The notes under the pieces: generated by a model | Told to the model about the DNA's origin: nothing | Database searches by the model: none | What the model saw: the letters and a program-made list of their open reading frames with translations, nothing else | Made by a program: the position numbers and the translations under genes | Origin: Microbacteriaceae bacterium | Lineage (GTDB): Bacteria > Actinomycetota > Actinomycetes > Actinomycetales > Microbacteriaceae | Direction: 5' to 3' | Length of the DNA stretch: 64,000 bases | NCBI GenBank assembly: GCA_035555435.1 | Contig: DATMGN010000017.1 | Coordinates: 10,775 to 74,774, forward strand | Shown: positions 24,577 to 41,204 of the stretch, one piece after another | Layout: each line of letters begins with the position of its first letter | Numbering within the stretch: the stretch's first letter is position 1

Positions 24577-25200
24577 TCAGGCGGTCGGCACCACGACCGG
24601 CGTCGGGTTGAGGTTGCGAATCCGGTCGATCACGGTGTCGACGATCCGCACCTGGTTGATCGGCGACGTCGTCTTGGGGTCCAGCAGCGGCACGACCTGC
24701 AGGCCGGTCGTCAGCCACAGCAGCTCGTCGACGACGAGCGCGGTCGCGACCTCCTCGCGGATCTCGGCGCTCGCGCGCGCGAGGTCGAGGTGCTGCTCGA
24801 AGAAGCCTCGCCAGATCGCGTGCGAGTCGGCGTGCACCTTCATGAGCGCGGGGATGGAGGCGGCGCGATCCCAGAACGCGACGGCGACGCGCGACTCGAT
24901 CTGGCGCTCGCGGTCCAGCGGCAGCATCTCCATGCACAGCGCCCGGATGGCGGCGAGTCCCGTCTTGTCGCCGGTCGCGAGGGCGGCCCGCTCGTTGATG
25001 CGGTAGAAGGTGCGCTGGTAGGCGGCGACGAGCAGCTCGTCCTTGTTGACGAAGTAGTGCTTGAGCCCGCCGTTGGCGAAGCCGGCCTCGGCCGCGATCT
25101 CGCGCATGGTCGCGGCCGCGAAGCCGCCCCGCGCGATGATCCGCCACGTCGCCTCGACGATCTCGATGCGACGCTGCTCATGGTCGACCTGCTTCGGCAC
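24577..25200 (-). CDS. TetR/AcrR family transcriptional regulator
   Basis: 207 aa. N-terminal HTH RRIEIVEATWRIIARGGFAAATMREIAAEAGFANGGLKHYFVNKDELL. Confidence 0.88.
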   Translation of the reverse strand: MPKQVDHEQRRIEIVEATWRIIARGGFAAATMREIAAEAGFANGGLKHYFVNKDELLVAAYQRTFYRINERAALATGDKTGLAAIRALCMEMLPLDRERQIESRVAVAFWDRAASIPALMKVHADSHAIWRGFFEQHLDLARASAEIREEVATALVVDELLWLTTGLQVVPLLDPKTTSPINQVRIVDTVIDRIRNLNPTPVVVPTA

Positions 25201-25303: not shown

Positions 25304-25344
25304 GCCGCCTTAGCTCAGTCGGCAGAGCATCTCACTCGTAATGA
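25304..25344 (+). pseudogene. 5' half of host tRNA-Thr(CGT), interrupted at the anticodon loop by the prophage (attL)
   Basis: GCCGCCT-TA-GCTC-AGTCGGCA-GAGC-A-TCTCA-CTCGTAA-TGA. The following sequence does not form the anticodon-stem 3' strand or a T arm. The matching 3' half is at 61227-61265. Confidence 0.85.
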
Positions 25345-25634
25345 TGAGGACCAGACTCGGGGGCAGGCTCGGCACTAGGCGGTCCCCATAGGAGCCAGTT
25401 CTGATCGACGCCGGTCGCGGCGCTGACCTTGGTGACGACTTCGGTGATCTTCCTGGGGGAGACGCCGTTCTCATAGCGAGCCCAATCGTTCTGACCTAGG
25501 CCGCATTTGACCGATGCCTCGGTTTGGTTCCAGCTCTTCGTCTGGCGGACCATCGCCAAGCGCGTACCGAACTCCGACGCGGTCGGGATCCACGCGCGTT
25601 CGGTCGCCTCGGGTACTGCACTCTGTGTTGTCAT
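25332..25634 (-). CDS. XRE-family phage repressor, prophage (truncated) form, 100 aa
   Basis: MTTQSAVPEATERAWIPTASEFGTRLAMVRQTKSWNQTEASVKCGLGQNDWARYENGVSPRKITEVVTKVSAATGVDQNWLLWG... HTH_XRE pattern. ORF crosses attL and ends in tRNA-derived sequence. Confidence 0.8.
   Translation of the reverse strand: MTTQSAVPEATERAWIPTASEFGTRLAMVRQTKSWNQTEASVKCGLGQNDWARYENGVSPRKITEVVTKVSAATGVDQNWLLWGPPSAEPAPESGPHHYE
25338..25344. repeat. attL crossover core GTAATGA
   Basis: Identical 7-mer at 61227-61233. Flanks partly similar (CTCGTAATGATGAGGACC vs CTTGTAATGAGAAGGTC). Confidence 0.75.
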
Positions 25635-25763
25635 GCAACAGATAGTGGCATAAGTCGCGCATAGCGCGCAATACGCGCGCGGGTATTTCCCAGGAACGGG
25701 TGCGCGACACGCCGCAAAAGATGTGTATTGCATCTAATGCGTGGGTATGCAACACTCAGACGC
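25635..25763. promoter_or_regulatory. divergent repressor / early-lytic control region with repeated ATGCAAYA half-sites
   Basis: ATGCAACA at 25633-25640 and 25747-25754. Inverted TATTGCAT at 25726-25733. GC-alternating block GCGCATAGCGCGCAATACGCGCGC at 25657-25680. Confidence 0.45.
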
Positions 25764-25952
25764 ATGACATCCGAAGTGTCGCATCTCACCACTAAGGAAG
25801 TGGCTAAGAGGTTCCGGGTCGATCCCTCGACCGTCCGCCGTTGGGCCGATTCCGGCTCCGTCCCGGCAACGAAGACACCGGGCGGTCGGTACCGGTTCGA
25901 CGCCGCCGACATCGACGCCCTCCTGACCTCCCCCGCGGAGAAGGCATCGTGA
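25764..25952 (+). CDS. excisionase-family (MerR-like) HTH DNA-binding protein, Xis/Cro candidate
   Basis: MTSEVSHLTTKEVAKRFRVDPSTVRRWADSGSVPATKTPGGRYRFDAADIDALL. Divergent from the repressor. Confidence 0.75.
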   Translation: MTSEVSHLTTKEVAKRFRVDPSTVRRWADSGSVPATKTPGGRYRFDAADIDALLTSPAEKAS

Positions 25953-26015
25953 GCGAGCTCTGGCCCGTGTCCCACGAAGCCGCTGTCGCCGAGATCGAGT
26001 GGATGACGAAGCGAC

Positions 26016-26219
26016 TCACCGCGATTGCAGAAAGCGTTCGATTCGCGCTATCCGTTCCGAGTTCTTATCGATCTGCTCCGCCAGCAGATTCAACGTGGAT
26101 TGCAGGGACACGAGCACGTCCCGCATCCACGGGTCGATCTGCGGGTGACCAGGGCTATACGTGCGACCGCTGTGCCACGTGTGGAACGCCGCGACGTTCT
26201 CCTTCGCAGAACTCGCCAT
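26016..26219 (-). CDS. hypothetical 67-aa protein, reverse-oriented, predicted coiled-coil C-terminus
   Basis: ATG comp. 26217-26219 preceded by GAAGGAGAAG. GC3-rich. MASSAKENVAAFHTWHSGRTYSPGHPQIDPWMRDVLVSLQSTLNLLAEQIDKNSERIARIERFLQSR. Confidence 0.55.
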   Translation of the reverse strand: MASSAKENVAAFHTWHSGRTYSPGHPQIDPWMRDVLVSLQSTLNLLAEQIDKNSERIARIERFLQSR

Positions 26220-26352
26220 TCGCTTCTCCTTCTGTCGGTGGCCCGGAAGTTGCACCTTCCGATCTGGCCGATGCAGCCACAGTAGGAGTCGCCCCGGACA
26301 CGGTGCCGCCTTCGGGCGCTGTGTCCGGGGACCCCAATGATGGGGGTGCGCG

Positions 26353-26529
26353 ATGAAGCTCCTCCGCGACATCCTCATCGTCGCCGCTGTGTTCGTCGTC
26401 GTGTTCACCGCGATCTGTTTCGTTCCGGTCGCGTTGGCGTTGGTCTTGTGGGCGGGTGTTCTCGCTTTGTTCGTGGTCGTGCCGGTGGGTGCGATCATTC
26501 GGCGTCGGTCACTCAGGAGCGGACGATGA
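26353..26529 (+). CDS. small two-TM membrane protein (58 aa)
   Basis: MKLLRDILIVAAVFVVVFTAICFVPVALALVLWAGVLALFVVVPVGAIIRRRSLRSGR. ATGA overlap with the next gene. Confidence 0.5.
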   Translation: MKLLRDILIVAAVFVVVFTAICFVPVALALVLWAGVLALFVVVPVGAIIRRRSLRSGR

Positions 26530-26810
26530 CCGCGACCGTGATCCCGTTCATTCCCCGCCCTGTGATGGAGAGCGGTCGGGAGGGTTGTGGGCCGCGTGTC
26601 CTGCCGGATGGTTGGGCGCGTGTGTCGACCGTCGTGCGATACGGGGATGACAAGGACGCCGTGTATTGGCATGGTCCCGTCGTCGCTCGCACCCCGGACG
26701 CGATCACGTTGACGATCTACGGCGAGGACGTCACGTTCCCGTTGGAGCAGCGTGCCCTGGTGAACGGGTGCGACATGCCGGTGCGACCGGGCTGGGTGGT
26801 GTCCGAATGA
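26526..26810 (+). CDS. hypothetical phage protein (94 aa)
   Basis: ATG 26526 after CAGGAGCGGAC. The upstream part of track ORF 26337 is Arg-rich junk. Confidence 0.55.
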   Translation: MTATVIPFIPRPVMESGREGCGPRVLPDGWARVSTVVRYGDDKDAVYWHGPVVARTPDAITLTIYGEDVTFPLEQRALVNGCDMPVRPGWVVSE

Positions 26811-27052
26811 GCGACACGCTCGCCGCGCTCCTGCATGTGGGGCAGACGGTGCAAACGCCCTTGTGGGATGCGGAGCTTCAGCGGCCGGCCCGCGCGGTGG
26901 TGACGTCGATCACGGCCATTGGTGAGCGTTTGCGCGTGTCCTATCGGTATCCGTCCGGGTACACGTCGGGGCAGTGGCTCAGTCCGCATGACCGTATCCC
27001 GGTCCCTGAATCGTCCGACCTGACCCCTCCTCGGCAGGTCGGCACCGGGTAG
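26807..27052 (+). CDS. hypothetical phage protein (81 aa)
   Basis: ATGA overlap with the upstream gene. GC3-rich. Confidence 0.55.
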   Translation: MSDTLAALLHVGQTVQTPLWDAELQRPARAVVTSITAIGERLRVSYRYPSGYTSGQWLSPHDRIPVPESSDLTPPRQVGTG

Positions 27053-27085
27053 CGAAAGCAGGGCCGGAGAGCCCAGCTACCCGCG

Positions 27086-27157
27086 CGGGGGTCGGACCCG
27101 AATCGACCCCCGCACCCAAACCACAGACAGAGAAAGCCCCCGGCGCGAACCGGGGGC
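27086..27157 (+). terminator. two GC-rich stem-loops in an early-region gap
   Basis: CGGGGGTCG...CGACCCCCG (27086-27112) and GCCCCCGG-cgcgaa-CCGGGGGC (27136-27157). No clear U-tract. Confidence 0.4.
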
Positions 27158-27185
27158 ACGACAACCGAAGGAATGGAGCCCTCGA

Positions 27186-27665
27186 ATGTCATCACAATCG
27201 TACGCCCCATACGACCTCAGAGCTGAGCAAGTGCAGGACGTTCCCCTTTTCGAGTCGATCGAAGCCGCATGGCCGACGATCACCGGTCTGTCACCTGCTG
27301 AGCATGAATACGACCGGCTCGTGTCGGGAGTGCCTGACTTGGCGCGACCAACCGATCCCGCTGAGTCGCACGCCGCGGCCCTCGCGATTCTCCCCAAGCG
27401 GAAGCGGTCACAGATCGCGGTCCTCAGGCTCATCGCAGAACTTGGATGGATCGACGGGCAGGAGTTGAACCGCGAGTACCGGGAACGGTACGCGAACACT
27501 GACATGCACCTTTCGTATGACTCGCCACGTAAGCGCGCGGGTGAGCTCATCGAACCCGGTCTCGTGCAGGTCCGCTCAGGGCATATCGCAGCGAACGGGA
27601 ATCCCGCACGCGAGTTCAAGATCACCGACCTGGGATGGGCACGACTGCGGGAGGTGACCGCGTGA
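27186..27665 (+). CDS. hypothetical phage protein (159 aa), possible winged-helix DNA-binding domain
   Basis: RBS GAAGGAATGGAG upstream. ...RSQIAVLRLIAELGWIDGQELNREY... Confidence 0.6.
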   Translation: MSSQSYAPYDLRAEQVQDVPLFESIEAAWPTITGLSPAEHEYDRLVSGVPDLARPTDPAESHAAALAILPKRKRSQIAVLRLIAELGWIDGQELNREYRERYANTDMHLSYDSPRKRAGELIEPGLVQVRSGHIAANGNPAREFKITDLGWARLREVTA

Positions 27666-28165
27666 TCAACATCAAGGACATCAAGCCAGGCGACACGATC
27701 GAGTTGACGTTCGAGAGCGTGAAGCTCATTCGTACGGCGACGTTGAACGGCCCGACGATCAATGCGCGGCTAGCGGTGGAGACGATGCCGCGCGGCACAT
27801 TCGTAAGCATCGCGCGCCTTATCGCCGACGGCTGGTCGATCACCGACCACAAGCCGAAGGTCGAACTGCCGACCGAGCCGGGCTGGTATCAGGCGGCATC
27901 GTTTCCCATCAGCGATCCGGGCTGGTATCCGTACGTCCTTGACGTAGACGGCGTCTGGCGCAGCTATGGCGACACCGGCTTCAAGGCGATGGACGACCCG
28001 GATGAACTGGCGACGGATGGCCCCCTCACCCGCCTCGTCCCCGAGGGCTCCGAGCGTGAGCAGGCAATCCAGGAAGTCATCGACTGGATCGGCTCGAGGC
28101 GAGCGGTAGCCGCCGAGATCACCCTGCTACGAGAGGCCCGTGAGCACTTCGGGGTCCAGTCGTGA
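27662..28165 (+). CDS. hypothetical phage protein (167 aa)
   Basis: GTGA overlap with the upstream stop. Coding-like GC3. Confidence 0.6.
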   Translation: MINIKDIKPGDTIELTFESVKLIRTATLNGPTINARLAVETMPRGTFVSIARLIADGWSITDHKPKVELPTEPGWYQAASFPISDPGWYPYVLDVDGVWRSYGDTGFKAMDDPDELATDGPLTRLVPEGSEREQAIQEVIDWIGSRRAVAAEITLLREAREHFGVQS

Positions 28166-28335
28166 TCCCGTTCCCGTCTCCTCTGTACCGGCGCCCGTCG
28201 TGGCGTGAGCGGTTCGGTTTCGCACTCGTGAACTACGTGCCGTGGTCGCCGACGCTCATCGCAGTGAGCATTCTCGCGGTCCTGATTGTGCCGCTCGCGG
28301 TGGTCGGCATGGTCGTGCTGGCGGTGACACGGTGA
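28162..28335 (+). CDS. small membrane protein (57 aa)
   Basis: GTGA overlap. ...PTLIAVSILAVLIVPLAVVGMVVLAV. Confidence 0.4.
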   Translation: MIPFPSPLYRRPSWRERFGFALVNYVPWSPTLIAVSILAVLIVPLAVVGMVVLAVTR

Positions 28336-28427
28336 ACCGCACCTGGTATCTGCTGAGCGTCATCGGCGGCAGCATCGTCGCGCTCATCGTCCTCATGGCG
28401 CTCGTGAACCTCGGGGTTCGCGCATGA
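28332..28427 (+). CDS. membrane peptide (31 aa)
   Basis: GTGA overlap. VNRTWYLLSVIGGSIVALIVLMALVNLGVRA. Confidence 0.3.
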   Translation: MNRTWYLLSVIGGSIVALIVLMALVNLGVRA

Positions 28428-29281
28428 GTGCGCTCACCGGCATTGTCCACGGCCTGCCCGAAGCCGACTACCACGCGCGGCCCGAACTGTCATCGACCGA
28501 AGCACGCCTGATCCTCGAGTCCCCGGCGAAGTACCGCTGGAAGAAAGACCACCCGCCGCTGGTCGCCCCGTCGAAGAAGTTCGACATCGGGTCCGCCGTT
28601 CACTCCAAGGTGCTCGGCACCGGGTACGACGTCGCGGTCATCCCTGACGAGATCCTCGCGTCCAACGGGGCGATCTCCACGAAGGAAGCGAAAGCGTTCG
28701 TGGATGAGGCACGCGCGGACGGGAAGATTCCGCTCAAGCGGGTCGACTTCGAACCGATCGACGCCGCCGCCGAATCCGTCCTCGCCCACCCGACCGCCCG
28801 AGCATTGTTCGATCAGCCCGGCGACGCCGAGGTGAGCGTGTTCGCGGAGATCGACGGCGTTCCCGTCCGAGCCCGGTTCGACTTCCTCCCCGAGCAGAGT
28901 GAGCGACGCCGGGTCGCGGTCGACTTGAAAACGGCTCGGGATGCGAGCTTCCGAGAGTTCGAACGGTCCATCGCATCACTCCGATACGACGTCCAGCGGT
29001 CCTGGTATCTCGCGGCACTCGACGCCGTGACTGGACCGATGCCGCACGGCTTGGAACCGGAGTTCGTGTACGTCGCGGTCGAGAAGGAACCGCCCTACCT
29101 CGTCGGTGTTCACGCGATCACCCCGCAATGGGCGGCGATCGGCGACGCGGCATCGGCGAAGGCTCGGCGGCTCTACGCGAGCTGCATGGAAGCGGGCGTG
29201 TGGCCCGGCTACCCCGAAGAAATCCAGTACCACGCGCCCCCGACGTGGCTCGTGATCCAAGCAGAGGAAGACGATGAGTGA
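28424..29281 (+). CDS. RecE-like PD-(D/E)XK exonuclease
   Basis: 285 aa. GLPEADYHARPELSSTEARLI..., ...RFDFLP...VAVDLKTARD... nuclease core. Directly upstream of recT. Confidence 0.7.
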   Translation: MSALTGIVHGLPEADYHARPELSSTEARLILESPAKYRWKKDHPPLVAPSKKFDIGSAVHSKVLGTGYDVAVIPDEILASNGAISTKEAKAFVDEARADGKIPLKRVDFEPIDAAAESVLAHPTARALFDQPGDAEVSVFAEIDGVPVRARFDFLPEQSERRRVAVDLKTARDASFREFERSIASLRYDVQRSWYLAALDAVTGPMPHGLEPEFVYVAVEKEPPYLVGVHAITPQWAAIGDAASAKARRLYASCMEAGVWPGYPEEIQYHAPPTWLVIQAEEDDE

Positions 29282-30086
29282 GGTTCAGGTTCGGCAGACG
29301 CCGGACATCATCCAGCAGGTCAACGCGTCGCAGTCGGGACTCGCCGCCGCCCTCGCGGACCGGATCGGTGTGGAGCGGTTCACGCGTGCCGCCGTCACGG
29401 TGCTCAGGACGACGCCCGCACTGTCGCGATGCACACCGGAGTCGGTACTTGGCGGGTTGTTCGTCGCCGCACAACTCGGCCTCGAGATCGGTGGTCCCCG
29501 TGCCTACGCACACTTGGTCCCGTACGGCAGAGACGCGCAACTGATCGTCGGCTACAAGGGCTACGTCGAGTTGTTCTACCGGGCCGGCGCGCGTGCGGTC
29601 ACAGCCGACATTGTTCGCGAGGGCGACGTGATTGAGCAGGCCACCGACGAGACGGGTCGGACCGTCATCCACTGGAAGAACGCGAATCCGCTGGACACCG
29701 ACCGCGCTCCGGTAGGCGCACTCGCGGTGGTTGTGCTGGCGTCTGGCGAGGTGTTGCAGAACTTCATGACGAAGGCGCAGATCCTCAAGCGCAAGCCGCG
29801 CACTTCAAAGGCCGGACCGTGGTCCGACTGGGAAGAGGAGATGTGGTTGAAGACGGTGCTGCGGGACACAGCCCGGACCGCACGCCTCTCGTCGGATGAT
29901 CTCGCTCTCGCGGTGCAGGCCGATCAGTCGATCACGACGGGGACCGGTGAGACGGCGAAGCGTCGTCATGTGGAGGTTGGTGAGGCCGAGTTCGAGCCGG
30001 TGACGGTCGCGGAACTGACGGCCCTGGTCGACGCTGAGCTCGATCCCGCGCACCCGGACTACGTGGCATCGGCAGACGAACGATGA
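29274..30086 (+). CDS. recT: RecT family single-strand annealing recombinase
   Basis: 270 aa. ...ESVLGGLFVAAQLGLEIGGPRAYAHLVPYG...QLIVGYKGYVELFYRAG... Confidence 0.8.
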   Translation: MSEVQVRQTPDIIQQVNASQSGLAAALADRIGVERFTRAAVTVLRTTPALSRCTPESVLGGLFVAAQLGLEIGGPRAYAHLVPYGRDAQLIVGYKGYVELFYRAGARAVTADIVREGDVIEQATDETGRTVIHWKNANPLDTDRAPVGALAVVVLASGEVLQNFMTKAQILKRKPRTSKAGPWSDWEEEMWLKTVLRDTARTARLSSDDLALAVQADQSITTGTGETAKRRHVEVGEAEFEPVTVAELTALVDAELDPAHPDYVASADER

Positions 30087-30319
30087 GCCGCGACTTTCCT
30101 CTCACGTCCGCTGACCTCCGGTACATCGCTGACCGCGTGGACGAGGTTTGCGCGGTGGTCGACCCGCCTGACGGTGAACTGAAGGACGGCGATTGGCGCT
30201 GGGGTCTACAGGTGACGATCTGGAACCAGGACGCCGCCGACGAAGACGACGTGGCTGGTGTGGTCGCTCCTCACGGCGACGGGTGGATCGGTTTCTATCC
30301 GAAGGGAATCGACCGTTGA
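30083..30319 (+). CDS. hypothetical phage protein (78 aa)
   Basis: ATGA overlap with recT. GC3-rich. Confidence 0.55.
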   Translation: MSRDFPLTSADLRYIADRVDEVCAVVDPPDGELKDGDWRWGLQVTIWNQDAADEDDVAGVVAPHGDGWIGFYPKGIDR

Positions 30320-30630
30320 CCCCCGCCGAGCGCCTACAGGCGGCAATCGACAAGCTCGAGCGGCTCAAGGCAGAGAGCGGCTACGTCGAGTTCAACGGGT
30401 GGCTTGCAGAGCCAAACCCCGGAGACACGGTGCGATCGCACCTTGAGCCGCGCGATGACTTGAGCCCGATCACGAACGATCCGCTTCTCGTCACCTTGCA
30501 TCGCACGATCGACGGGCAGATCGGCCTCCTCCAGTACACCCTCGGGATGCTCATCCACGATGACGTGCGCGCAGGGCAACTCGATCAGGTCCTCGCCCTC
30601 GCTGACGCGATCCTCGGGGGTGCCGAATGA
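30316..30630 (+). CDS. hypothetical phage protein (104 aa)
   Basis: TTG 30316 overlaps the upstream stop. Same frame as track ORF 30193-30630. Confidence 0.5.
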   Translation: MTPAERLQAAIDKLERLKAESGYVEFNGWLAEPNPGDTVRSHLEPRDDLSPITNDPLLVTLHRTIDGQIGLLQYTLGMLIHDDVRAGQLDQVLALADAILGGAE

Positions 30631-31352
30631 GCGCCCGGCCGAAACTCCTCGACCTGTTCTGCTGTCAGGGCGGTGCGTCCGAAGGTTACCGGCGTGCAGG
30701 GTTCGACGTGTACGGCAACGACATTGACCCGCAACCGCGCTACCCGTTCATGTTCACGAAGGGAGACGCGCTACTGACGCTGCGCCGACTACTCGCGGGC
30801 GATCCGGTGCCGTTCGGTGATGGGACCGGCCGCCTCGACTGGATGCACCTGTGGGACTTCGATGCGATTCACGCGAGCCCGCCGTGTCAGACGTTCACGG
30901 CGTACCGTCGCCGTGGCGCTGGGGTCGGGGATTCCTACCTGAATCTGATCCCCGAGACCCGCGAGTTGCTCGAACGAACCGGCCTGCCCTGGGTGATCGA
31001 GAACGTCGAAGGTGCGCGCGGTGAGCTCCGCGAATCAGTCCGCGTTTGCGGGTCGTCGTTCGGGCTCGACGTTCGCAGGCATCGGCTCTTTGAGTCGAGC
31101 GAGGCAATGTCTGGAACCGTCTGCGATCACGCATGGCAGACGCCCCGTTTCCCCCCAGCTACGAATCGCACGAACTTGCGCCGCACTGTCGAGGTAGGCG
31201 TCTGGCGTATTCCGCTGAACGTGCAGCAGGACGCGATGGGTGGGCTGGAGTGGATGACTCTCCGTGGGCTGTCCGAAGCGATCCCGCCGGCCTACACCGA
31301 GTTCATTGGCACCCAGCTCCTCGCTTCCCTCTCTGGGGAGGTGACCGCATGA
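30627..31352 (+). CDS. DNA (cytosine-5)-methyltransferase, compact
   Basis: Motif I LDLFCCQGGAS, IV SPPCQ, VI ENV, VIII RRHRLF, X AIPPAY. Confidence 0.8.
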   Translation: MSARPKLLDLFCCQGGASEGYRRAGFDVYGNDIDPQPRYPFMFTKGDALLTLRRLLAGDPVPFGDGTGRLDWMHLWDFDAIHASPPCQTFTAYRRRGAGVGDSYLNLIPETRELLERTGLPWVIENVEGARGELRESVRVCGSSFGLDVRRHRLFESSEAMSGTVCDHAWQTPRFPPATNRTNLRRTVEVGVWRIPLNVQQDAMGGLEWMTLRGLSEAIPPAYTEFIGTQLLASLSGEVTA

Positions 31353-32065
31353 CCTGCAAGAAGAAGAAGCCGTCCGAGTTTACGGAAGCAGTTGGCACAT
31401 GCCGGCACTGTGGCTCGGAGCTTCTGCAGAAGCGCGGAGAGAGCCGGGGACACTTCAGCACTCGGAAGTTCTGTGACCTCGATTGCTACCAAGCGAATGT
31501 TGATGTGCCGTGCTCATACCCAGGATGTGGTGGACGAAAGCTGGCGCGGGGATTGTGCTCAAAGCACTACGCCCGCGTTCGAGCAAACGGCTCCCCAGAA
31601 GTCGTCCGTCGCATAGTCGGAGCTTCGCTCGCCGAGCGTCTAGCCGCGTATTCCCGGCCCGATGGGGACTGTCTTGTTTGGTTTGGGGGTACTCACCGGA
31701 GTGGTCACGGGAAGATTCAAGTCTCGGGCAGGTCTATTGGTACGCACCGCATCGCATTCATCGAAGCGTATGGGCCGATTCCTGAAGGCTTGGTTGTTCG
31801 TCACAAGTGCGACAACCCACCGTGCATTCGCCCGGAGCATCTTGAGTTGGGGACCTCTGCGGACAATACGAACGACCGGACGATCCGAGGTCGAACGTCT
31901 ACCGCGAGACGCAAACTCGACGCCACGCAAGTGGTTGAAGTTCGGAGGCGAATCTTGGCGGGCGACTTCAAGCGAGACATTGCTATGGATTTCGGCGTCG
32001 TTCCGACTGTGATCTCCAATATCGCACTTGGCCGTGCCTACGTCGGGGTGGGGGTGACGGTGTGA
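31349..32065 (+). CDS. HNH (HNH_3-type) endonuclease with C-terminal HTH
   Basis: VVRHKCDNPPCIRPEHLELGTSADN. N-terminal Cys clusters. ATGA overlap. Confidence 0.75.
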   Translation: MTCKKKKPSEFTEAVGTCRHCGSELLQKRGESRGHFSTRKFCDLDCYQANVDVPCSYPGCGGRKLARGLCSKHYARVRANGSPEVVRRIVGASLAERLAAYSRPDGDCLVWFGGTHRSGHGKIQVSGRSIGTHRIAFIEAYGPIPEGLVVRHKCDNPPCIRPEHLELGTSADNTNDRTIRGRTSTARRKLDATQVVEVRRRILAGDFKRDIAMDFGVVPTVISNIALGRAYVGVGVTV

Positions 32066-32469
32066 TCCCGAAATCGCTCGTGAAGCGAGTCCTGGCCCGT
32101 GACCACGGCATGTGCGTGATCGCCGGCCCGCCCTGCACTCGTGACGCCACAGTCGCTGACCATCGCGTCAATCGTGGGCATGGCGGATCGAAGGTACTGA
32201 ACGATCTCGCGAACCTGATCGCCGCGTGCGGGCTGTGCAACGGATGGAAAGAGGACGTGGACGGCGAAGCTCTCATCGAGCTGCGCCGTCGCGGCGTCCG
32301 AGTGCAACCCGACTCGACTCATGCGAAGTCGCTCCTGCGCGCACAGATCACCCCGGTCGAGTATCCGAACGGCATGGTCGTCATCCTCACGTCGTCAGGC
32401 GATCGGCTCGCACAGGTGCTCATGAAGTCCGCGGGTGTGTCGATCCACGCGGACAGGAAGGTCAGCTGA
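32062..32469 (+). CDS. HNH endonuclease
   Basis: 135 aa. ...ATVADHRVNRGHGGSKVLNDLANLIAACGLCNGWKED. Confidence 0.7.
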   Translation: MIPKSLVKRVLARDHGMCVIAGPPCTRDATVADHRVNRGHGGSKVLNDLANLIAACGLCNGWKEDVDGEALIELRRRGVRVQPDSTHAKSLLRAQITPVEYPNGMVVILTSSGDRLAQVLMKSAGVSIHADRKVS

Positions 32470-33140
32470 TGGCGAAGGAGATTCGCACAGTCAAACGTGA
32501 CCTGTGGCGTTCGGACGATTTCAACGGCCTGTCCCGTGACGCTCGCCTCACATGGGTTGCGCTCATCAGCTACGCGGACGACCACGGCAGGTTCAAAGCC
32601 GACCCTCGGGAACTGTGGGCGTTCGCATGGTTGCACGACGGCGACATGCATGTGGAGGACGTCGGTCACCACCTGGCCGAGATGGTCGAGCGGGGCATGA
32701 TTCACGCCTATTCGGTGGACGGTCGGGACTATTTCGAGATCCCAACATGGTCGAAGCATCAGCGGGTGGATAACGCGGCGAAGTCTCCTATTCCTGCCCC
32801 TCGCGGCGATTCGCCGCAGTCTGCCGCGGTTCGCGGCGAACTGCCGCACGCTGCCGCTGGAGGGGAGGGGAGGGGAGAGGAAGGGAGGGGAGATGCCGCG
32901 GACCGCGGCGAACCCCCCGCCCCGTTCTGCTCGAAGCATCCCGGCGGTACGGATGATCCGTGCCGGGCGTGCGGGAACGCGCGTCGTCGTCGGGATGAGT
33001 GGGATGCGGAGGTTCGTAATCGGGCGACTCCGACTCCGAAGCGTGGTCCGTGCGATCACTCGAAAGCAACCAAGCAGGGTCTGACGGTGTGCGAGTGCGA
33101 TGCGCGACTCGAGGACGGCGTATGGAGGGCAGTCGCATGA
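32469..33140 (+). CDS. hypothetical phage protein, possible replication/DNA-binding function
   Basis: 223 aa. N-terminal ...RLTWVALISYADDHGRF... Gly/Glu/Arg low-complexity linker, Cys-rich C-terminus. Confidence 0.5.
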   Translation: MAKEIRTVKRDLWRSDDFNGLSRDARLTWVALISYADDHGRFKADPRELWAFAWLHDGDMHVEDVGHHLAEMVERGMIHAYSVDGRDYFEIPTWSKHQRVDNAAKSPIPAPRGDSPQSAAVRGELPHAAAGGEGRGEEGRGDAADRGEPPAPFCSKHPGGTDDPCRACGNARRRRDEWDAEVRNRATPTPKRGPCDHSKATKQGLTVCECDARLEDGVWRAVA

Positions 33141-34201
33141 AGCCGTACTACGCCGACGATCTCGTGACGCTGCATCAGGGCGATGCGCTCGATGTGTCCC
33201 GCGAGCTCGATCCGGGGTCGGTGCAGACGATCGTCACATCACCGCCATACTTCGGCCTCCGCGATTACGGAGTCGACGGTCAGCTCGGCGCTGAGCAGTC
33301 CGTGCAGGAGTACGTCGACCGGATGGTTGCCCTATTCCGCAGCCTCCGTGACGTGCTCGCGGATGACGGGACGCTGTGGCTCAATCTCGGCGACTCGTAC
33401 AGCGGTGCCGGCCCGTCCGGGGCGTCCTACGACTCAGCAACGACTAGACGCCGCGCTGAGGGTGACGGCATGGACGGCAAGTTTCGCGTCTCTAAGCGGC
33501 TCGCAGAGCGTGATCTGGACTACTCGCGCAAGAAGCCCGTCCCTACCAGTGGGATACCGGCAAAGAACCTTATCGGCGTCCCGTGGCGTGTCGCGTTCGC
33601 GCTCCAAGACGACGGGTGGATTCTCCGGTCGGACATCATCTGGGCGAAACCGAACCCGATGCCGGAGAGCGTGGCGGACCGGCCGACGAAGGCGCACGAG
33701 TACCTGTTCCTGATGAGTAAGTCGCCCCGGTACTACTACGACGCGGAGGCGATCAAGGAACCGGCGATCACAGGATTCAACGGGTCCGAGTTCCACACGG
33801 GCAAGACGGGCGAGCATCAGCTCGAGCGTGCGTCGAAGCAGCCACGATTCGGGGGGAATAAATACGGGCTCGGCAACGACACCCCGAAGTCGGGGAACGA
33901 GTACGCACCGAACGGACGGGCGAACAAGCGCACCGTCTGGTCTGTGCCCACGGTGCCGTTCAGTGAGGCGCACTTCGCCGTATACCCGCCTGAACTGATC
34001 CGCCCCTGCATCCTCGCCGGCTCGAGGCGTGGCGACACCGTGCTCGACCCGTTCTCGGGCTCTGGAACGACGGGCATGGTCGCCACGCAGGAGGGACGCC
34101 GCTACATCGGCGTCGACCTGAATCGGGAGTACCTCGAGCTGAGTCTGCGGTCGAGGTTCGCTCAGCCGGTGCTCGACATGACGGGCGGTGATGTCGCATG
34201 A
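33137..34201 (+). CDS. DNA methyltransferase, beta class (N4-cytosine or N6-adenine)
   Basis: Motif IV IVTSPPYFGLRDYG precedes motif I LDPFSGSGTTG. IWAKPNPMPES. Confidence 0.8.
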   Translation: MKPYYADDLVTLHQGDALDVSRELDPGSVQTIVTSPPYFGLRDYGVDGQLGAEQSVQEYVDRMVALFRSLRDVLADDGTLWLNLGDSYSGAGPSGASYDSATTRRRAEGDGMDGKFRVSKRLAERDLDYSRKKPVPTSGIPAKNLIGVPWRVAFALQDDGWILRSDIIWAKPNPMPESVADRPTKAHEYLFLMSKSPRYYYDAEAIKEPAITGFNGSEFHTGKTGEHQLERASKQPRFGGNKYGLGNDTPKSGNEYAPNGRANKRTVWSVPTVPFSEAHFAVYPPELIRPCILAGSRRGDTVLDPFSGSGTTGMVATQEGRRYIGVDLNREYLELSLRSRFAQPVLDMTGGDVA

Positions 34202-34509
34202 GTCAGGTCAAGATCCGCAATATCACCGCGACGGTCGAGGGCAGTGACCTGTGGCGGGCTGAGTCGAAACTCGGTGCGGATGGGCTGCGGTCGGGGATTA
34301 CGGCCGCGGTCGAGTCGGCGGTGCGAGTCATGGCGACATCGGGGCATCGGTCCCTGTCGGCGCGCGTCGCGGAACTGCATCGTGCGGGCTTGTGTGACGC
34401 GTTGATCGCAGGCGAGCTGAACGTCGTGAAGTACCGCGTCGGTGATATTCGCCGGCGTCTCGGATTGGAACCGAACCGGTGCCACCGGTCGGGAGGAAGG
34501 CGACAGTGA
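34198..34509 (+). CDS. hypothetical phage protein (103 aa)
   Basis: ATGA overlap with the methyltransferase. Possible C-terminal HTH. Confidence 0.5.
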   Translation: MSQVKIRNITATVEGSDLWRAESKLGADGLRSGITAAVESAVRVMATSGHRSLSARVAELHRAGLCDALIAGELNVVKYRVGDIRRRLGLEPNRCHRSGGRRQ

Positions 34510-34631
34510 ACGTCCTCAAATCCCCGGATTCGAACGTCCGTTCGATAGAATCAAAGCGGCCCCAAACCGAGTGCGCTAACACTCGCCGGGGCCTAACCCT
34601 CAACCAAGGTCTAGTTGATTGGAGGGCTACC

Positions 34632-35114
34632 GTGAATGGTACCCAAGACCCCCTTATCGTTGCTCGCTTCTGGAGCAAGGTCGAAGTGCGTCGCCCAGGC
34701 GAATGCTGGGACTGGCGCGCGAAGTCAGTCGGGAGCGGCGGTCACGGAGTGTTCCGCCCGAGCAAGTCCCTCCCACTAGTGAAGGCTCACAGATTCGCGT
34801 GGGAGGCCGCACATGGCCCCATCGCAGACGGAGTCATTCTTCGCCATCGATGCGATAACGCTGGGTGTTGCAATCCCGCGCACATGATCCCCGGCACTCA
34901 GGCCCAGAACGTGGCCGACATGCACATGCGCCGCCGTCGCCGCTACAAGACCCAGTTCTCGGACCAGCAGATCATCCAGATTCGCGAGCGGTATCTCGCC
35001 GGAGAGTCGCAGAGGTCGCTCGCTCAAGAGTTCGAGTGCTCGCAGAGCTACATATCCATGATCGTTCGCGGCGTCCGAGGCGTCGCGGCAATGAAGGGAA
35101 TCAGAGATGAATGA
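34632..35114 (+). CDS. HNH (HNH_3-type) endonuclease with C-terminal HTH, paralogue of 31349-32065
   Basis: GTG 34632 after GGAGGG. ...[26 protein letters not shown]...[17 protein letters not shown]. Confidence 0.7.
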
Positions 35115-35574
35115 AACCGTCGTTTGCGTCGTCGGCAACCTGACCGCCGACCCGGAGTTGCGTTTCACGCAGTCGGGTCTCGCGGTCGTGAACTTCACGA
35201 TCGCTAGTACGCCGAAGACGTTCGACAAGGCGAAGAACGAGTGGGTCAACGGCGAGACGCTGTTCCTGCGGGCGTCGTGCTGGCGTGAGTTCGCGGAGCA
35301 TGTCGCGGGCAGTCTCTCGAAGGGTTCGCGGGTCGTCGCGACGGGGAAGCTGCGGTCGCGTGCGTATGAGACCCGTGAGGGTGAGAAGCGGACGTCGATT
35401 GAGTTGGATGTGGACGAGATTGGTCCGTCGCTGCGATATGCGACGGCGACTGTGACCAGGAGCGCGTCAAACGACCGAGCAAACGGCTCACCAAGCGCGA
35501 TTTCAGGGAATGACTCGTGGAATGCGCCCGCAGATTGGACGGAGGTCGGCAATGTCTCCGAAACGCCGTTCTAG
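35107..35574 (+). CDS. ssb: single-stranded DNA-binding protein
   Basis: [29 protein letters not shown] fold, C-terminal tip SETPF. Confidence 0.9.
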
Positions 35575-35839
35575 TCACATTGAGGGTCTGACGGAGTACG
35601 CGACCGAGCGAGAGACAACGGTCACCTACTCGCCGGGTGATCCGGTCGTGCGGATCTGGACGAGCGTCGCGAAGCATCTGCGGGCGTTCCGAGCTGACTC
35701 GGGCTACTCCGAAACGAGGTCTTGGCCGGCTGACGGTCTGACCCCCGAGGCGGCTGAGTTCACGATTCGCCGTGACTTGTACGAAGTGGCTCGTGGGCGT
35801 CGTCGTCCGCGTGGTCCGAAGGGAGACGCCGATGCCTGA
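35552..35839 (+). CDS. hypothetical phage protein (95 aa)
   Basis: Internal ATG of track ORF 35510-35839. Start uncertain. Confidence 0.45.
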
Positions 35840-36086
35840 CACCTACACGCCGACGACGGGGGAGGTGCGCGACACATTCGCAGCGTTTCACTACACGAGC
35901 CGTCATGGGTCGGAGGTCGCCACCGAGTTCGACCGGTGGCTAGCGCAGGAGCAGGCGAAGGCGTGGGATGAGGGTGCGCTGTGGGCTGCTGTCGAGTGCG
36001 GCGTCATTGCCAACGAGCACGGGCGGTTTCTCGCTCCCGGCGACAACCCCTACCGCGCTCGTCTCTCCTCTGGAGGTGAGGGATGA
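35832..36086 (+). CDS. hypothetical phage protein (84 aa)
   Basis: ATG 35832 in track ORF 35772-36086. Confidence 0.5.
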   Translation: MPDTYTPTTGEVRDTFAAFHYTSRHGSEVATEFDRWLAQEQAKAWDEGALWAAVECGVIANEHGRFLAPGDNPYRARLSSGGEG

Positions 36087-36235
36087 GCGAGCCATGCCCG
36101 TACTGCGGGCGCTTCATGCGTCAGGTCTGGCACCAGGCGTCCGACGAGCCGGACAGTTGGCAGGACTACTGGCGATGCGTCCAGCACGAGAAGCACAAGA
36201 AGGACCATCCAGACGATTTCGGAGGCCCCCGATGA
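36083..36235 (+). CDS. small zinc-ribbon-like protein (50 aa)
   Basis: MSEPCPYCGRFM...WRCVQHEKH. ATGA overlaps at both ends. Confidence 0.45.
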   Translation: MSEPCPYCGRFMRQVWHQASDEPDSWQDYWRCVQHEKHKKDHPDDFGGPR

Positions 36236-36447
36236 CCTCCATCCAGCAGGCCGCAGAAGGCGCTGAGTGGGCGCTTGAGCGTGCGGCGCGTGTCGTGGAA
36301 TCGAACCTTGGGCGGTCGTGGATCGGCACTGAGACGCCGAGGGACATCGCCACCGCTATCCGTTCCCTGTCCACCACGTCTATCCCGATTTCCGGATCAT
36401 CCGGGTCTGATCGCGAAAACACGATAAAGGAGGAGAGCAATGAGTGA
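36232..36447 (+). CDS. hypothetical phage protein (71 aa)
   Basis: ATGA overlap. In frame with track ORF 35968-36447. Confidence 0.45.
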   Translation: MTSIQQAAEGAEWALERAARVVESNLGRSWIGTETPRDIATAIRSLSTTSIPISGSSGSDRENTIKEESNE

Positions 36448-36685
36448 GATTCAAGCGTCGGGGCGCTACAGGGTCTGGTACATCCCGCAGGTTCCGATGC
36501 CTGCATTCGAGCGAGAGTTCAGCGACCTGGAGACAGCGAAGGTGGTCCTCAACGCGATCATCGACTTCTCGATTTTCGAGTTCGAGAGCCGAATCAAGCC
36601 GGACTACTCCGACATGGCAGGTATCGCTGTTTGGGACGGCGAGGACTGGGAAGATCTGGACGAGAGCGAGTGGTCTGATGCCTGA
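36440..36685 (+). CDS. hypothetical acidic phage protein (81 aa)
   Basis: Track ORF. RBS AAGGAGGAG upstream. Confidence 0.6.
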   Translation: MSEIQASGRYRVWYIPQVPMPAFEREFSDLETAKVVLNAIIDFSIFEFESRIKPDYSDMAGIAVWDGEDWEDLDESEWSDA

Positions 36686-36995
36686 TCTCGATGCCCTGCT
36701 GACCGAGGCGGATCAGTTCGTCGCTACTCGCGGTGAGTCTCGACGCGACACAGATCTCGTGCAGCGTCTCGCATCCGCTCTCCGTTCCGTCCAGGTACCG
36801 GTGACCGAGGAGATGGGATGGGAGTACGGGGTCACGCGCGATCCCGGTTCGGCGTACGCGGAGTACACGGTCGGAACTGAGGGTGTGGTTCGCGAGTACG
36901 CGGCGAAACGCCCGCACCTCCACGCGTGTCGCCGACGCAAGGCTGGCCCCTGGGAGACCTTGCCCACCCCCGGCACCACAACAGAGGAGGAATGA
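36678..36995 (+). CDS. hypothetical phage protein (105 aa)
   Basis: ATG 36678 inside track ORF 36444-36995. Confidence 0.5.
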   Translation: MPDLDALLTEADQFVATRGESRRDTDLVQRLASALRSVQVPVTEEMGWEYGVTRDPGSAYAEYTVGTEGVVREYAAKRPHLHACRRRKAGPWETLPTPGTTTEEE

Positions 36996-36998
36996 GAG

Positions 36999-37184
36999 AT
37001 GGCCCGACAGTTCATTGCGATCGTCACCGTTGAGGACGGGACGACGTTCAATCAGATTCGAGAGGCGGCGCAGTCGTTCATCGAGTGTACGCCGATGTTC
37101 GTCGAGGCGGTTCGGTTCACGGAGGCGCGGGAGTATCGCCTTCCGCCACTTTCGGAGCCGACCCCATCCGTAGGGGAGGAATGA
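36999..37184 (+). CDS. hypothetical phage protein (61 aa)
   Basis: Track ORF. GGAGGAATGAGAGATG junction. Confidence 0.5.
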   Translation: MARQFIAIVTVEDGTTFNQIREAAQSFIECTPMFVEAVRFTEAREYRLPPLSEPTPSVGEE

Positions 37185-37187
37185 GAG

Positions 37188-37529
37188 ATGAAGCGCACCA
37201 ATGAGATCCAGGGCACCCGACGACTTCCCGATCTCGACTACCGAGAGAACTTCTCCATGCGGAAGGACCCCCCAGGCACCTACGTCAAGATCGTGAACTT
37301 CCCGCCGATGGCGGTTGGGCCGACAAACCTCACGGGCGACCTTTGGTTCGTGATTACACCGAATGGACTGCTTGGCAATCTCGGCAATCACACCGTGCGA
37401 GAGGAAGATGACGGCACGATCTCCGTGAATCCTGGGGATGGGTCCAGTAACAGCATTCTCGTCAACGGGGGTGAACAGGGCTCCTGGCATGGATACATCA
37501 CTCGTGGCCTGTGGTGGAGCCTCGCATGA
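37188..37529 (+). CDS. hypothetical phage protein (113 aa)
   Basis: Track ORF. Identical GGAGGAATGAGAGATG junction. Confidence 0.55.
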   Translation: MKRTNEIQGTRRLPDLDYRENFSMRKDPPGTYVKIVNFPPMAVGPTNLTGDLWFVITPNGLLGNLGNHTVREEDDGTISVNPGDGSSNSILVNGGEQGSWHGYITRGLWWSLA

Positions 37530-38035
37530 CCGCCATCGACCTCGACGCGATCCGAGCACGACACCGGAAGACCCGAGTGCAGGTCGGCTCCGAGACGCAC
37601 GGTGGCCCACCGCAGTACGGCGACGTGTGCGTCCAGTCAGGGTGTGGTGTGGCGTGGCCCTGCGAGACTGCCGCGCTCCTGGCGGAGATTGACCGTCTCC
37701 TCGCCCTGGTGTCCGAACCGCCGACCGACGACGAGGTGAAGGCGCTGGTTGCCGTGCTTGACCCCGCAGATTCGTCGCGGCACAGCGGGCGTCTCTGGGC
37801 AGGTCGAAGCCTTCATGCTACTCAGGCCCAGGAGATTGCTAACGCGATCATCGCCGCTGGCTTCACCCGCCGCCCCATGCCGAGCGAGGACGAGATCGCT
37901 CGCGCGATGGCCGCTGCGATCAACTCGGAGACGGGACAGGAGTCCGGCTGGACGTTGACGCCTGGCGGTGGAGAACGAATGGTCAGGATCTGCGCCGCCA
38001 CTGCACTCGCCCTGTTCAAGGGAGCCGAGGGATGA
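37526..38035 (+). CDS. hypothetical phage protein (169 aa)
   Basis: ATGA overlap. Track ORF 37511-38035. Confidence 0.55.
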   Translation: MTAIDLDAIRARHRKTRVQVGSETHGGPPQYGDVCVQSGCGVAWPCETAALLAEIDRLLALVSEPPTDDEVKALVAVLDPADSSRHSGRLWAGRSLHATQAQEIANAIIAAGFTRRPMPSEDEIARAMAAAINSETGQESGWTLTPGGGERMVRICAATALALFKGAEG

Positions 38036-38169
38036 CGTTCAAGATGCATCGCCGGACTGACCCGGCGTGCCGCCGACACCGCGTACCGAGGTGGTGGTTC
38101 GACCGGTGGTGGTTCGACCGGAATCGCGGCTATAGCTGCCAGGTCTGCATGAAGGGGGCAGAGGGATGA
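38032..38169 (+). CDS. small Arg/Trp-rich protein (45 aa) with in-frame 15-bp tandem duplication
   Basis: ATGA overlaps at both ends. ...RWWFDRWWFD... Confidence 0.35.
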   Translation: MTFKMHRRTDPACRRHRVPRWWFDRWWFDRNRGYSCQVCMKGAEG

Positions 38170-38522
38170 CCCCCGACGAGATGAAGGCGCTGATCGACAG
38201 TGTGGCCCACGATATTGTGGAGCACCGCTGGCCGCACGTCGATGCTGAGGTATTCGAGGAGCTTCGACAGGCGCATCTCGATCTCGCAGAGAAGATCGTC
38301 ACCGAGGTCCTAGCCGCCCTGTCCGCTCACCCCGCCGAGGAGACGGACAGCGCACGACGACTGCTGTGGATCATCGCTGATCGCAACATCGACGGCATCA
38401 CAATCTCAGATGCGGAGCTTGTGGCCGTGCCGCGCTTGCCGGGGATCAGCGTCGAGCGCGACCTCGAACGGGGCGTCACGGTGATTCGCGCGGTCCCTAC
38501 TGACAGGGAGGCCGACGCATGA
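38166..38522 (+). CDS. hypothetical phage protein (118 aa)
   Basis: Track ORF, overlapping junctions. Confidence 0.55.
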   Translation: MTPDEMKALIDSVAHDIVEHRWPHVDAEVFEELRQAHLDLAEKIVTEVLAALSAHPAEETDSARRLLWIIADRNIDGITISDAELVAVPRLPGISVERDLERGVTVIRAVPTDREADA

Positions 38523-39232
38523 TCGCCGACAGCGAGTTTCGCGATAGGAGAGACATGAACACCCTGCTCGACGTCGACGCTGACGTGTCTATCCGTAAAC
38601 TCGTCGCCCCGTGGTCTGACGTGCTGTCCCCGAAGGAAACCGGGACGGGTCGGTATCAGCCGGTCGATTACCCGCCACTGCTGGACATGCTCGATGAGGC
38701 GTGCCGATCAAATATTGGGGGTGTGCCGACTGGGGGTCGCTCGGACCCATCCGCACGGAACCTACTGAACCTCGAGGCGCACATGCTTCGGGAGCATATT
38801 GACGGGACGGTGCGCGCGTGGCTTCGGGAACTGTCGAAAGCGCGTGCCGAGGTCGAGTTGAAGTCTGCTCTGGCGCAGCTCGCCGGAGTGCTGAACGCAC
38901 ACCATGCGGCGGGGACGATGCCGGATAGTGAGTGGGAGCGGATCAGCCGATTCTTCCCGCGGTGGTGTGACCGAATCTGGCAGTTGTTTGACCCGCCCGT
39001 CGTGAAGGAACTTGCGGGTGCGTGCCCTTCCTGCACGGAGACGACGTTCACGGGCCTCGACGGGGCGAAGACAACGGCGCTCATCGCGTACTACTGGAAG
39101 GGCATCCGGCCGGAAGCAAAATGTCAGAGGTGCGGGGAACACTGGAGTGGCGAGCGGGCGTTGCTTGATCTCGGCTACCACCTGGGCGCAACGGTCGACG
39201 AGGACGCACTGCGAGAAATGGGAGTGCTGTGA
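38519..39232 (+). CDS. hypothetical phage protein (237 aa) with C-terminal CxxC...CxxC
   Basis: Track ORF. ...GACPSCTE...KCQRCGEHW. Confidence 0.55.
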   Translation: MIADSEFRDRRDMNTLLDVDADVSIRKLVAPWSDVLSPKETGTGRYQPVDYPPLLDMLDEACRSNIGGVPTGGRSDPSARNLLNLEAHMLREHIDGTVRAWLRELSKARAEVELKSALAQLAGVLNAHHAAGTMPDSEWERISRFFPRWCDRIWQLFDPPVVKELAGACPSCTETTFTGLDGAKTTALIAYYWKGIRPEAKCQRCGEHWSGERALLDLGYHLGATVDEDALREMGVL

Positions 39233-39861: not shown

Positions 39862-39899
39862 ACTCGCGAGTACGCGCCATTAGTGCGCTCTGAATCGGG

Positions 39900-39926
39900 A
39901 AGCCTCGCCTCGAGCGGGGCTTTCGT
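39900..39926 (+). terminator. stem-loop plus T-rich tail ending the early operon
   Basis: AAGCCTCGC-ctcga-GCGGGGCTT followed by TCGTCATT. Lies in a 215-bp non-coding gap. Confidence 0.5.
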
Positions 39927-41118: not shown

Positions 41119-41204
41119 CCGCTTTCCCACGCATTACCGCGTGATCCGCACCTAACGCTTGCAATCCCAATCAAGGGAGGCAGTGATGTGTCCTGACTGC
41201 GAGC

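Follow-up and report, generated by a model that had tools for sequence, protein, structure and literature searches.

A prophage of a Microbacteriaceae bacterium with attP inside its repressor gene and a tRNA-Thr gene beside its integrase gene

The Prophage and its Host Site

The subject of this article is a prophage lying in a 64,000-nucleotide stretch of DNA from a Microbacteriaceae bacterium (GenBank assembly GCA_035555435.1, contig DATMGN010000017.1), referred to throughout as the window. The prophage interrupts a host gene for tRNA-Thr(CGT). Just inside its left end lie a repressor gene (rep) and a divergent cro-like gene, and just inside its right end a detached piece of rep, the gene for a small tyrosine integrase (int) and a phage-borne gene for tRNA-Thr(CGT) (Table 1). 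Taken together, these features very probably describe a complete-looking temperate phage of siphovirus type, which carries an integration-dependent immunity cassette like that of phage Brujita together with the arrangement known as tRNA-dependent lysogeny.

Table 1. Features at the two ends of the prophage and in the interrupted host gene, in window coordinates (comp., complementary strand).
Feature	Position	Strand	Remarks
Prophage body, 35.9 kb	25345..61226		siphovirus-type, apparently complete
attL core GTAATGA, 7 bp	25338..25344		tRNA positions 35-41
attR core GTAATGA, 7 bp	61227..61233		
Host tRNA-Thr(CGT), 5′ part, positions 1-41, attL core at its end	25304..25344	+	joins with 61234-61265; intact homologues at the syntenic locus of L006 and L007
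Orphan 3′ part of host tRNA-Thr(CGT), positions 35-73	61227..61265	+	
attL hybrid pseudo-tRNA, host 5′ half plus decayed phage copy of the 3′ half	25304..25384	+	
rep, prophage form, 100 aa, HTH_31 domain	25332..25634	-	ATG at comp. 25634
rep-cro intergenic control region, 129 bp	25635..25763		divergent promoters and operators predicted
Divergent cro-like/MerR-like HTH_17 gene, 62 aa	25764..25952	+	Pfam HTH_17, E 7.7e-15
Detached rep 3′ end, 19 codons (KATTPREVAIGPWIGSRVA) plus TAG	61167..61226	-	kept in relatives L018, L020 and L023
Spacer from viral rep stop to int start, 114 nt	61053..61166	-	ribosome-binding site GAGGGAGGA
int, small tyrosine integrase, 284 aa	60198..61052	-	PF00589, E 8.9e-21; protein ends ...ERLAA
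Phage tRNA-Thr(CGT)	60110..60184	-	starts 13 nt past the int stop

The cargo of the element comprises RecT/exonuclease, methyltransferases, terminase, portal, protease, major capsid, tape measure and minor tail proteins, and an M23 peptidase/lysin. Its G+C content also sets it apart, with 0.70-0.74 in the flanks against 0.61-0.68 (mostly 0.62-0.66) at about 26-62 kb. The 7-bp core announced in the original prediction was found again at the left end, with its second copy at the right. To the left of the attL core stand tRNA positions 1-34, and to the right of the attR core positions 42-73; joining 25304-25344 to 61234-61265, across a single core, gives GCCGCCTTAGCTCAGTCGGCAGAGCATCTCACTCGTAATGAGAAGGTCGTGGGTTCGATTCCCACAGGCGGCTC, which ARAGORN calls as tRNA-Thr(CGT) and which folds into a perfect cloverleaf. 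No direct repeat longer than this core, which might have served as an alternative attachment site, was found flanking the element.

The same locus can be seen in its uninterrupted state. In two Microbacteriaceae/Micrococcales metagenome-assembled genomes (MAGs), L006 and L007, found by way of the flanking DUF3500 gene, a TetR gene, an intact tRNA-Thr(CGT) gene and the DUF3500 gene are contiguous, and in L007 the alignment runs unbroken over the rebuilt host junction. The comparison with an uninterrupted tRNA-Thr locus that had been proposed at the outset thus yielded an intact gene in both genomes, and these loci are empty attB sites.

The Repressor Gene and the Predicted attP Site

In the prophage, Rep ends with ...ESGPHHYE. 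The residues HHY are encoded across the core, and the final GAG codon and TGA stop (25332-25337) are tRNA positions 29-34, just the borrowing from the host gene that the original prediction had described. Reconstruction of the circular form bore out its continuation as well: with 25345 joined to 61226, the frame stays open for 19 more codons up to a TAG at comp. 61167-61169, giving a Rep of 118 aa that reads ...GPHHY-KATTPREVAIGPWIGSRVA (in full ...GPHHYKATTPREVAIGPWIGSRVA) and ends ...GPWIGSRVA. The detached 3′ end would be expressed solely from the excised or viral genome. The predicted attP sequence is GGTGGCCTT-GTAATGA-TGAGGACCAG, and the predicted attB sequence is CTCACTC-GTAATGA-GAAGGTCG. 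Once circularized, the cro-like gene (+), the 129-bp gap, rep (-), 114 nt and int (-) form a compact unit in which rep and int are co-oriented and cro is divergent. As had been claimed, int follows viral rep closely on the same strand, its ATG lying at comp. 61052, and integration separates the two genes.

This uninterrupted arrangement is found in relatives. In L001, a 38-kb Logan contig, an HTH_17 gene (-), rep, 130 nt and int make up a continuous rep-int unit in the unintegrated state, and translated similarity passes from window 25.3-25.9 kb directly into window 61.0-53 kb, matching the order of genes expected of the circular form. The L001 rep contains the reverse complement of the full tRNA T-arm and acceptor strand, and its product ends ...KRKRVA. 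Contigs from three independent Logan runs (L020-L022; Int 71% identical) are likewise unintegrated, with a MerR-like gene (-), a rep of 133 aa, 98 nt, int and tRNA-Thr(CGT). Their repressor is of a different helix-turn-helix (HTH) type, yet it ends ...SGPNHY-RVPSSDNVISGPWKNIA, and the DNA flanking the core has AGTCTGG[A/T]CCT[A/C]ATCATTACA[G/A]GG in common with the window. Closer still, L018 and L019 (Int 88% identical) are integrated at the same site and keep the detached tail as KSTPSREVAIGPWIGSRVA, while in L023 (Int 73% identical) the tail reads ..VVGPWAGSDAA. The close relatives therefore share a pattern made up of GPW, a few residues and [V/I/A]-A-stop. An open frame of 19 codons is not significant in itself at 63% G+C, but the extension stands above chance because the tail is conserved in these relatives.

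The 129-bp region between rep and the cro-like gene holds two further conserved elements: the motif ATGCAATAC, also present in L001, and the block CGTATTGCGCGCTATGCGCGACTTATGC, conserved just upstream of rep in Arthrobacter phage Elesar. Both are candidate operator or promoter elements. The upstream in-frame ATG at comp. 25733 probably belongs to this conserved DNA motif and is not a start codon. No E. coli-type promoters or terminators scored around rep and cro, a result that is uninformative for an actinobacterium of 70% G+C.

Homology to Known Immunity Systems

Integration-dependent immunity was elucidated in three phages, of which Brujita is one (PMC3694055). Its cassette, reported by Broussard et al. 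(2013) and summarized in PMC3694055, consists of the MerR-like gp35 (-), rep gp34 (+), 133 nt and int gp33 (+). Each of the three window genes has its homologue there: int with 40% identity (E 7e-59), the cro-like gene with 68% identity to the MerR/HTH_17 gene gp35 (E 4e-17), and rep with 37% identity (E 6e-19), the last alignment crossing the junction itself (HY|KAT in the window, HY|QTT in Brujita). Gene order and strands are the same, the rep-int spacer is similar, and Int ends with -AA in both phages. In both, attP lies in the 3′ end of rep with a Tyr codon on the same anticodon-loop GTAA of tRNA-Thr, the Brujita codons GESNPRPIHY being the reverse complement of TAATGAATAGGTCGGGGGTTCGATTCCCCCAGGCGGCTCC, the 3′ half of tRNA-Thr.

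The BPs/Brujita-type layout named in the original prediction thus stands, backed by the unintegrated relatives. Its suggestion that an anticodon-loop attB distinguishes the window does not, since the Brujita core starts at the same position of tRNA-Thr. What does differ is the extent of the core: the attP of Brujita holds about 40 bp of the tRNA 3′ half, whereas in the window the core has decayed to 7 identical bp and the tRNA is not rebuilt. Furthermore, Brujita has no tRNA gene in the 4.2 kb around its cassette, where the window phage has one; the Rep tail of Brujita ends with -HAA instead of -RVA, and its host is a Mycobacterium instead of a member of the Microbacteriaceae.

The comparison with BPs is looser. 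Here too integration sets two repressor isoforms, gp33(136) and gp33(103), and both Int and Rep are C-terminally tagged (PMC4557955), as they would be in the window; in BPs the short prophage form is the active one (PMC4557955). The BPs repressor is of a different sequence type and loses 33 residues, whereas in the window 19 residues are replaced by one, and its attB is a different tRNA that is rebuilt on integration, contrary to that of the window.

Among sequenced phages, tblastn finds relatives of Rep annotated as immunity repressors in Brujita, Babsiella and Island3 (Cluster I1), in several Gordonia phages, and in M. abscessus prophages, whose records place attP within the repressor. The systems of M. 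abscessus prophages and Gordonia phages are likewise bioinformatic predictions, based on attP in rep, a near stop in attL and tagged C-termini (PMC8092301, PMC5559632), and several of their repressors are homologous to the window Rep. They differ in that a tRNA, where it serves as attB, is reported as rebuilt and no cognate phage tRNA is reported (PMC8092301, PMC5559632). Integration-dependent immunity had already been predicted in phages and prophages of Gordonia, Streptomyces and M. abscessus, and discussed for Bifidobacterium prophages, and the papers searched do not list Microbacteriaceae among its hosts. The different host lineage stressed in the original prediction is therefore real, but a modest extension: by homology, the window cassette can be counted as a new member of the group.

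Two phages of other hosts touch on this comparison. Gordonia phage Bowser (L014 3986-5776) has a rep homologue (41%) ending with -MVAA and an int ending with -DPAA, with no tRNA within 4 kb. No attP could be located in or near its rep (PMC5559632), and a very short core, as in the window, could explain why that site went undetected. Elesar, an Arthrobacter phage of Cluster FF, whose integration system has been left open in the literature, carries a rep homologue (44%; L016 3390-6052) that ends ...PVRKVA and contains CCTTGTAAT, as the window attP does; its small Int ends with -QAA, and a tRNA-Arg(TCT) gene lies directly beside it. It was considered as a second case combining the two mechanisms and was not counted, the adjacent tRNA being Arg(TCT) while the GTAA-containing site in rep looks Thr-like.

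The Integrase and the C-Terminal Ends of Int and Rep

Int is made of a SAM-like and a catalytic domain and has no arm-binding domain. At the sequence level its C-terminus bears a putative degradation signal, and every Int compared ends with -AA: RLAA in the window, RRAA in L001, RLAA in L020, PRAA in L023, LSAA in Brujita, DPAA in Bowser, AAAA in EricDab, PSAA in Clown and PQAA in Elesar. The ends of the viral Rep are more varied, with RVA in the window and in L001, NIA in L020, KVA in Elesar, HAA in Brujita, VAA in Bowser, WAA in EricDab and PAA in Clown.

Another Int relative (44% identical) belongs to a prophage of Microbacteriaceae bacterium SG_E_30_P1 (GCA_029893205.1; L026 3300-3350), which lies against the orphan 3′ half of a tRNA-Thr gene with the junction TCATTAC|AAG, as in the window, and lacks a phage tRNA. 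The anticodon loop of tRNA-Thr(CGT) seems to be a widespread target of this integrase family in Microbacteriaceae.

The Broken Host tRNA and the Phage-Borne tRNA

To the right of the attL core, the phage sequence (TGAGGACCAGACTCGGGGGCAGGCTCGGCACTAGGCGGTCC) is the degenerate remnant of a tRNA 3′ half. It retains the acceptor strand AGGCGGT, has lost the T-arm, and shows indels relative to the tRNA, among them a 7-nt insertion. The hybrid formed with the host 5′ half scores 29.1 bits against the Rfam tRNA model (cut-off 29), as compared with 71.2 for the phage tRNA. ARAGORN makes no call for it, its minimum-energy fold is not a cloverleaf, and for want of a T-arm it was rejected as a working tRNA. 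As the 3′ half in attP has decayed, with only 7 bp identical and no T-arm, integration would inactivate the host tRNA.

The phage tRNA-Thr(CGT) beside int, of which the original prediction made no mention, has the same anticodon as the broken host gene and is the sole intact tRNA in the window and in the prophage; we infer that it compensates for that gene. It may have its own promoter, TTGGAA-18 nt-TAGGAT, overlapping the end of int. The int-tRNA-Thr(CGT) pair is present in every relative whose Int is at least 71% identical (71-88%: L018, L019, L020, L021 and L023). More distant Int relatives, at 44-46% identity (L024-L026), have no adjacent tRNA, and none was found in the 20 kb around the rep-int region of L001, which carries the full core. 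The codon to be read, ACG, is the commonest Thr codon of the host, accounting for 57% of Thr codons or about 30 per 1000 codons.

This is the arrangement of tRNA-dependent lysogeny, which Guerrero-Bustamante and Hatfull (2024) define by a tyrosine integrase with a tRNA attB, a core that at about 8-17 bp leaves the tRNA unrestored, and a phage-encoded cognate tRNA (PMC10865867). The known cases are Fionnbharth (K4), Cluster L, Gaia (X), and Gordonia phages of clusters CQ2 and DL (PMC10865867). As far as sequence can tell, all three elements are in place at the window locus, and in Gaia too the cognate tRNA gene lies just downstream of int. The core, 7 bp long in the window and 8-17 bp in those phages, is likewise too short to rebuild the tRNA. 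There are also differences. The lambda-like integrases of those phages have arm-binding domains and fall into two other families, whereas the window Int is small and lacks such a domain; their attP is not reported to lie within the repressor gene; and their targets are tRNA-Lys, -Ile2 or -Leu (PMC10865867) instead of tRNA-Thr(CGT).

Might the phage tRNA be unrelated to the broken host gene, serving instead for codon supply during lytic growth or to counter a tRNA-targeting defence? Several roles have been proposed for phage tRNAs (PMC10865867), and in the phage, too, ACG leads the Thr codons with 49%. Such a role would leave unexplained that this is the only tRNA in the prophage, that it carries the exact anticodon of the destroyed gene, and that it adjoins int. 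It also co-occurs with the decayed core in close relatives, while L001, with its full core, does without it, so that an unrelated function is judged unlikely.

The phage tRNA may also have been exchanged with host genes. Over 73/73 positions it matches the chromosomal tRNA that the sister MAG L006 carries at its syntenic TetR-tRNA-DUF3500 locus (window 60110-60195 (-); L006 3832-3915). In L018 (2521-2606) the identity with L006 extends into the 11-nt leader TCGTTGACCGC, making a block of about 85 nt at 100%. The split tRNA of the window and the tRNA of L007 are of the other type, with about 17 differences from the phage/L006 type. Either the phage captured a host allele or the host allele was overwritten. 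At the crossover position, all four phage tRNAs (window, L018, L020 and L023; window site 60144-60150 (-)) read GTAATGG, with a compensated C29-G41 pair, while GTAATGA is found in the host tRNAs at or near integration sites (the window, the host of L018, L026 and the half-tRNA with which L023 begins) and in the intact gene of L007. The phage tRNA may thus escape its own integrase, and hosts of the L006 type may be poor targets.

Points Against the Model and Rival Explanations

The joint reading of the locus as an integration-dependent immunity cassette with tRNA-dependent lysogeny has several points against it. The tail of the window Rep ends with -SRVA, where published ssrA-like tags end with -AA. 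The HTH_17 fold of the divergent gene is excisionase-like, as in Brujita gp35, and a role in recombination directionality is possible. As for the tRNA, tRNA-Thr(UGU) might read ACG by wobble, and the host tRNA may be non-essential. Finally, the exact attP junction of the window phage is absent from IMG/VR (36-mer search) and from JGI metagenomes (26-mer search), and neither the exact 118-aa Rep nor a 151-aa form with an alternative start occurs in a collection of 15 billion proteins. With both junction and protein missing from the data searched, the viral form is a reconstruction and not an observation. On the first of these points, ssrA-tag variants with an -LVA end are strong ClpXP substrates in E. 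coli, and a degradation tag could accordingly end with -VA.

That attP overlaps rep could also be a mere inherited by-product, the attP of this family having always lain in the 3′ end of rep; both forms of Rep would then be equally stable and active and immunity would be independent of integration. This would suit the -RVA end, the poor conservation of the central part of the tail when L001 is compared with the window, and the finding that the short and long forms of the BPs repressor bind DNA alike (PMC4557955). Against this, the GPW...[V/I/A]A-stop tail has been kept even though the repressor bodies are of different HTH types, Int retains its -AA end in every relative, and the cassette is homologous to one with a demonstrated mechanism. 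A by-product is accordingly held to be quite unlikely, and a switch in repressor stability remains the favored interpretation.

In the early-region DNA, the only match to 50,697 phage records was one of 83 bp to Gordonia phage GMA1 (two accessions), so that no close sequenced phage exists among those records. IMG/VR scans with a rep relative and with the phage tRNA sequence returned no matches, and the int scan of the same database only one relative at 39%, without a tRNA. A single 20-mer junction match (L010) fell on an unrelated AT-rich contig that otherwise shows no resemblance to the window, and was dismissed as a chance match. An identical 100-aa Rep was found on public contigs (5 in the protein index, 9 contigs read), and all four places examined were integrated. 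Logan contig L005 (SRR7976150) ends at window 25315, exactly 23 nt beyond the core. Logan assemblies are built with k=31, and this end is where a k=31 path would merge with that of an intact tRNA; it is a weak hint that the sample contains lysogens alongside cells whose tRNA is intact.

Having only integrated copies of the window phage in public data might point to a decaying, non-inducible prophage, in which truncated rep and broken tRNA are the frozen remains of an old insertion with no present switch. That is very improbable. The cassette ORFs and the structural module are all intact; the detached 19-codon end of rep is still open, and its conservation in L018 is accompanied by silent as well as replacement changes; several samples contain a near-identical prophage, including a variant in gene content; and relatives are found as free genomes.

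Proposed Sequence of Events and Implications

In the model that best accommodates these data, rep(118) and int would be read in one direction in the free phage genome, from the promoter region beside the divergent cro-like gene, with attP located 19 codons before the end of rep. Strand exchange by the small tyrosine integrase would take place inside the GTAATGA that the host tRNA-Thr(CGT) has in its anticodon loop and stem. Upon integration, the last 19 residues of Rep would be replaced by a single Glu and a stop provided by the tRNA, while int would be moved 36 kb away from the rep promoter and the prophage state thereby fixed. By homology with BPs and Brujita (PMC3694055, PMC4557955), the 118-aa Rep would be short-lived or inactive through its C-terminal tail and the 100-aa form would be the stable immunity repressor, and Int (...RLAA) would be protease-sensitive. 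Because the long Rep would be ineffective, the short one stable and Int subject to proteolysis, immunity would be set only after integration. The same event would inactivate the host tRNA-Thr(CGU), and the prophage tRNA would then take over ACG decoding, as Fionnbharth and Gaia lead one to expect.

A more ambitious proposal goes beyond this, and is put forward tentatively, at a little less than an even chance. A Microbacteriaceae phage lineage may have fused two integration-contingent checks into one module of about 2.3 kb (cro/rep-with-attP/int/tRNA), in which integration would both activate the repressor and destroy an important host tRNA that only the prophage replaces, leaving the lysogen dependent on its prophage for ACG decoding. 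The phage tRNA, with GTAATGG and its 29:41 change, would be a poor target for its own integrase, and the phage-type tRNA of L006 with its 11-nt leader would hint at allele overwriting or at host escape by means of the phage allele.

Among actinobacteriophages, no departures from the lambda model are better known than integration-dependent immunity and tRNA-dependent lysogeny. Reviews as recent as late 2025 give them as separate examples. Each term is mentioned in 23 papers, and both together in only three: the 2024 paper on tRNA-dependent lysogeny (PMC10865867), a 2025 review and a paper on genome synthesis. In the first two they are handled as distinct phenomena, and no paper describing the two in one phage was found. 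If both do reside in one cassette, immunity and the dependence of the host on its prophage would be set together by one event, integration. The relatives would also capture a stage in the origin of tRNA dependence, with L001 and Brujita having the full tRNA half and no tRNA found nearby, and the window lineage a decayed half together with a tRNA. This fits a scenario left open by the 2024 paper, in which an acquired tRNA relaxes selection on the core. The window phage would extend tRNA-dependent lysogeny to a third integrase family, small and without arm-binding domain, to tRNA-Thr, and to the Microbacteriaceae, for which few temperate phages have been characterized. On the practical side, the 100-aa Rep and not the 118-aa one would be the form to clone as an immunity marker, and an integrating vector built on int/attP would need the tRNA gene.

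Other Features of the Window

Some observations concern the surroundings of the cassette. Transcripts from the rep promoter would cross the tRNA 5′ half in antisense and enter, after 131 nt, a host TetR-family gene of the same strand (comp. 25200..24577; whole interval 24577-25331, -). E. coli-type models, which are uninformative at such G+C content, showed no terminator-like site. This host regulator might change its expression on lysogeny. A glycosyltransferase-like gene (48174-49325, +; phrog_7162, ‘moron’ category, E 9e-63) separates the capsid genes of the prophage from its tail genes. The early region holds two DNA methyltransferase-like genes (30627-31352 and 33050-34201, +), one a weak match to DNA_methylase and the other to N6_N4_Mtase, and in a variant prophage, L004, the same region carries two additional HNH endonuclease genes.

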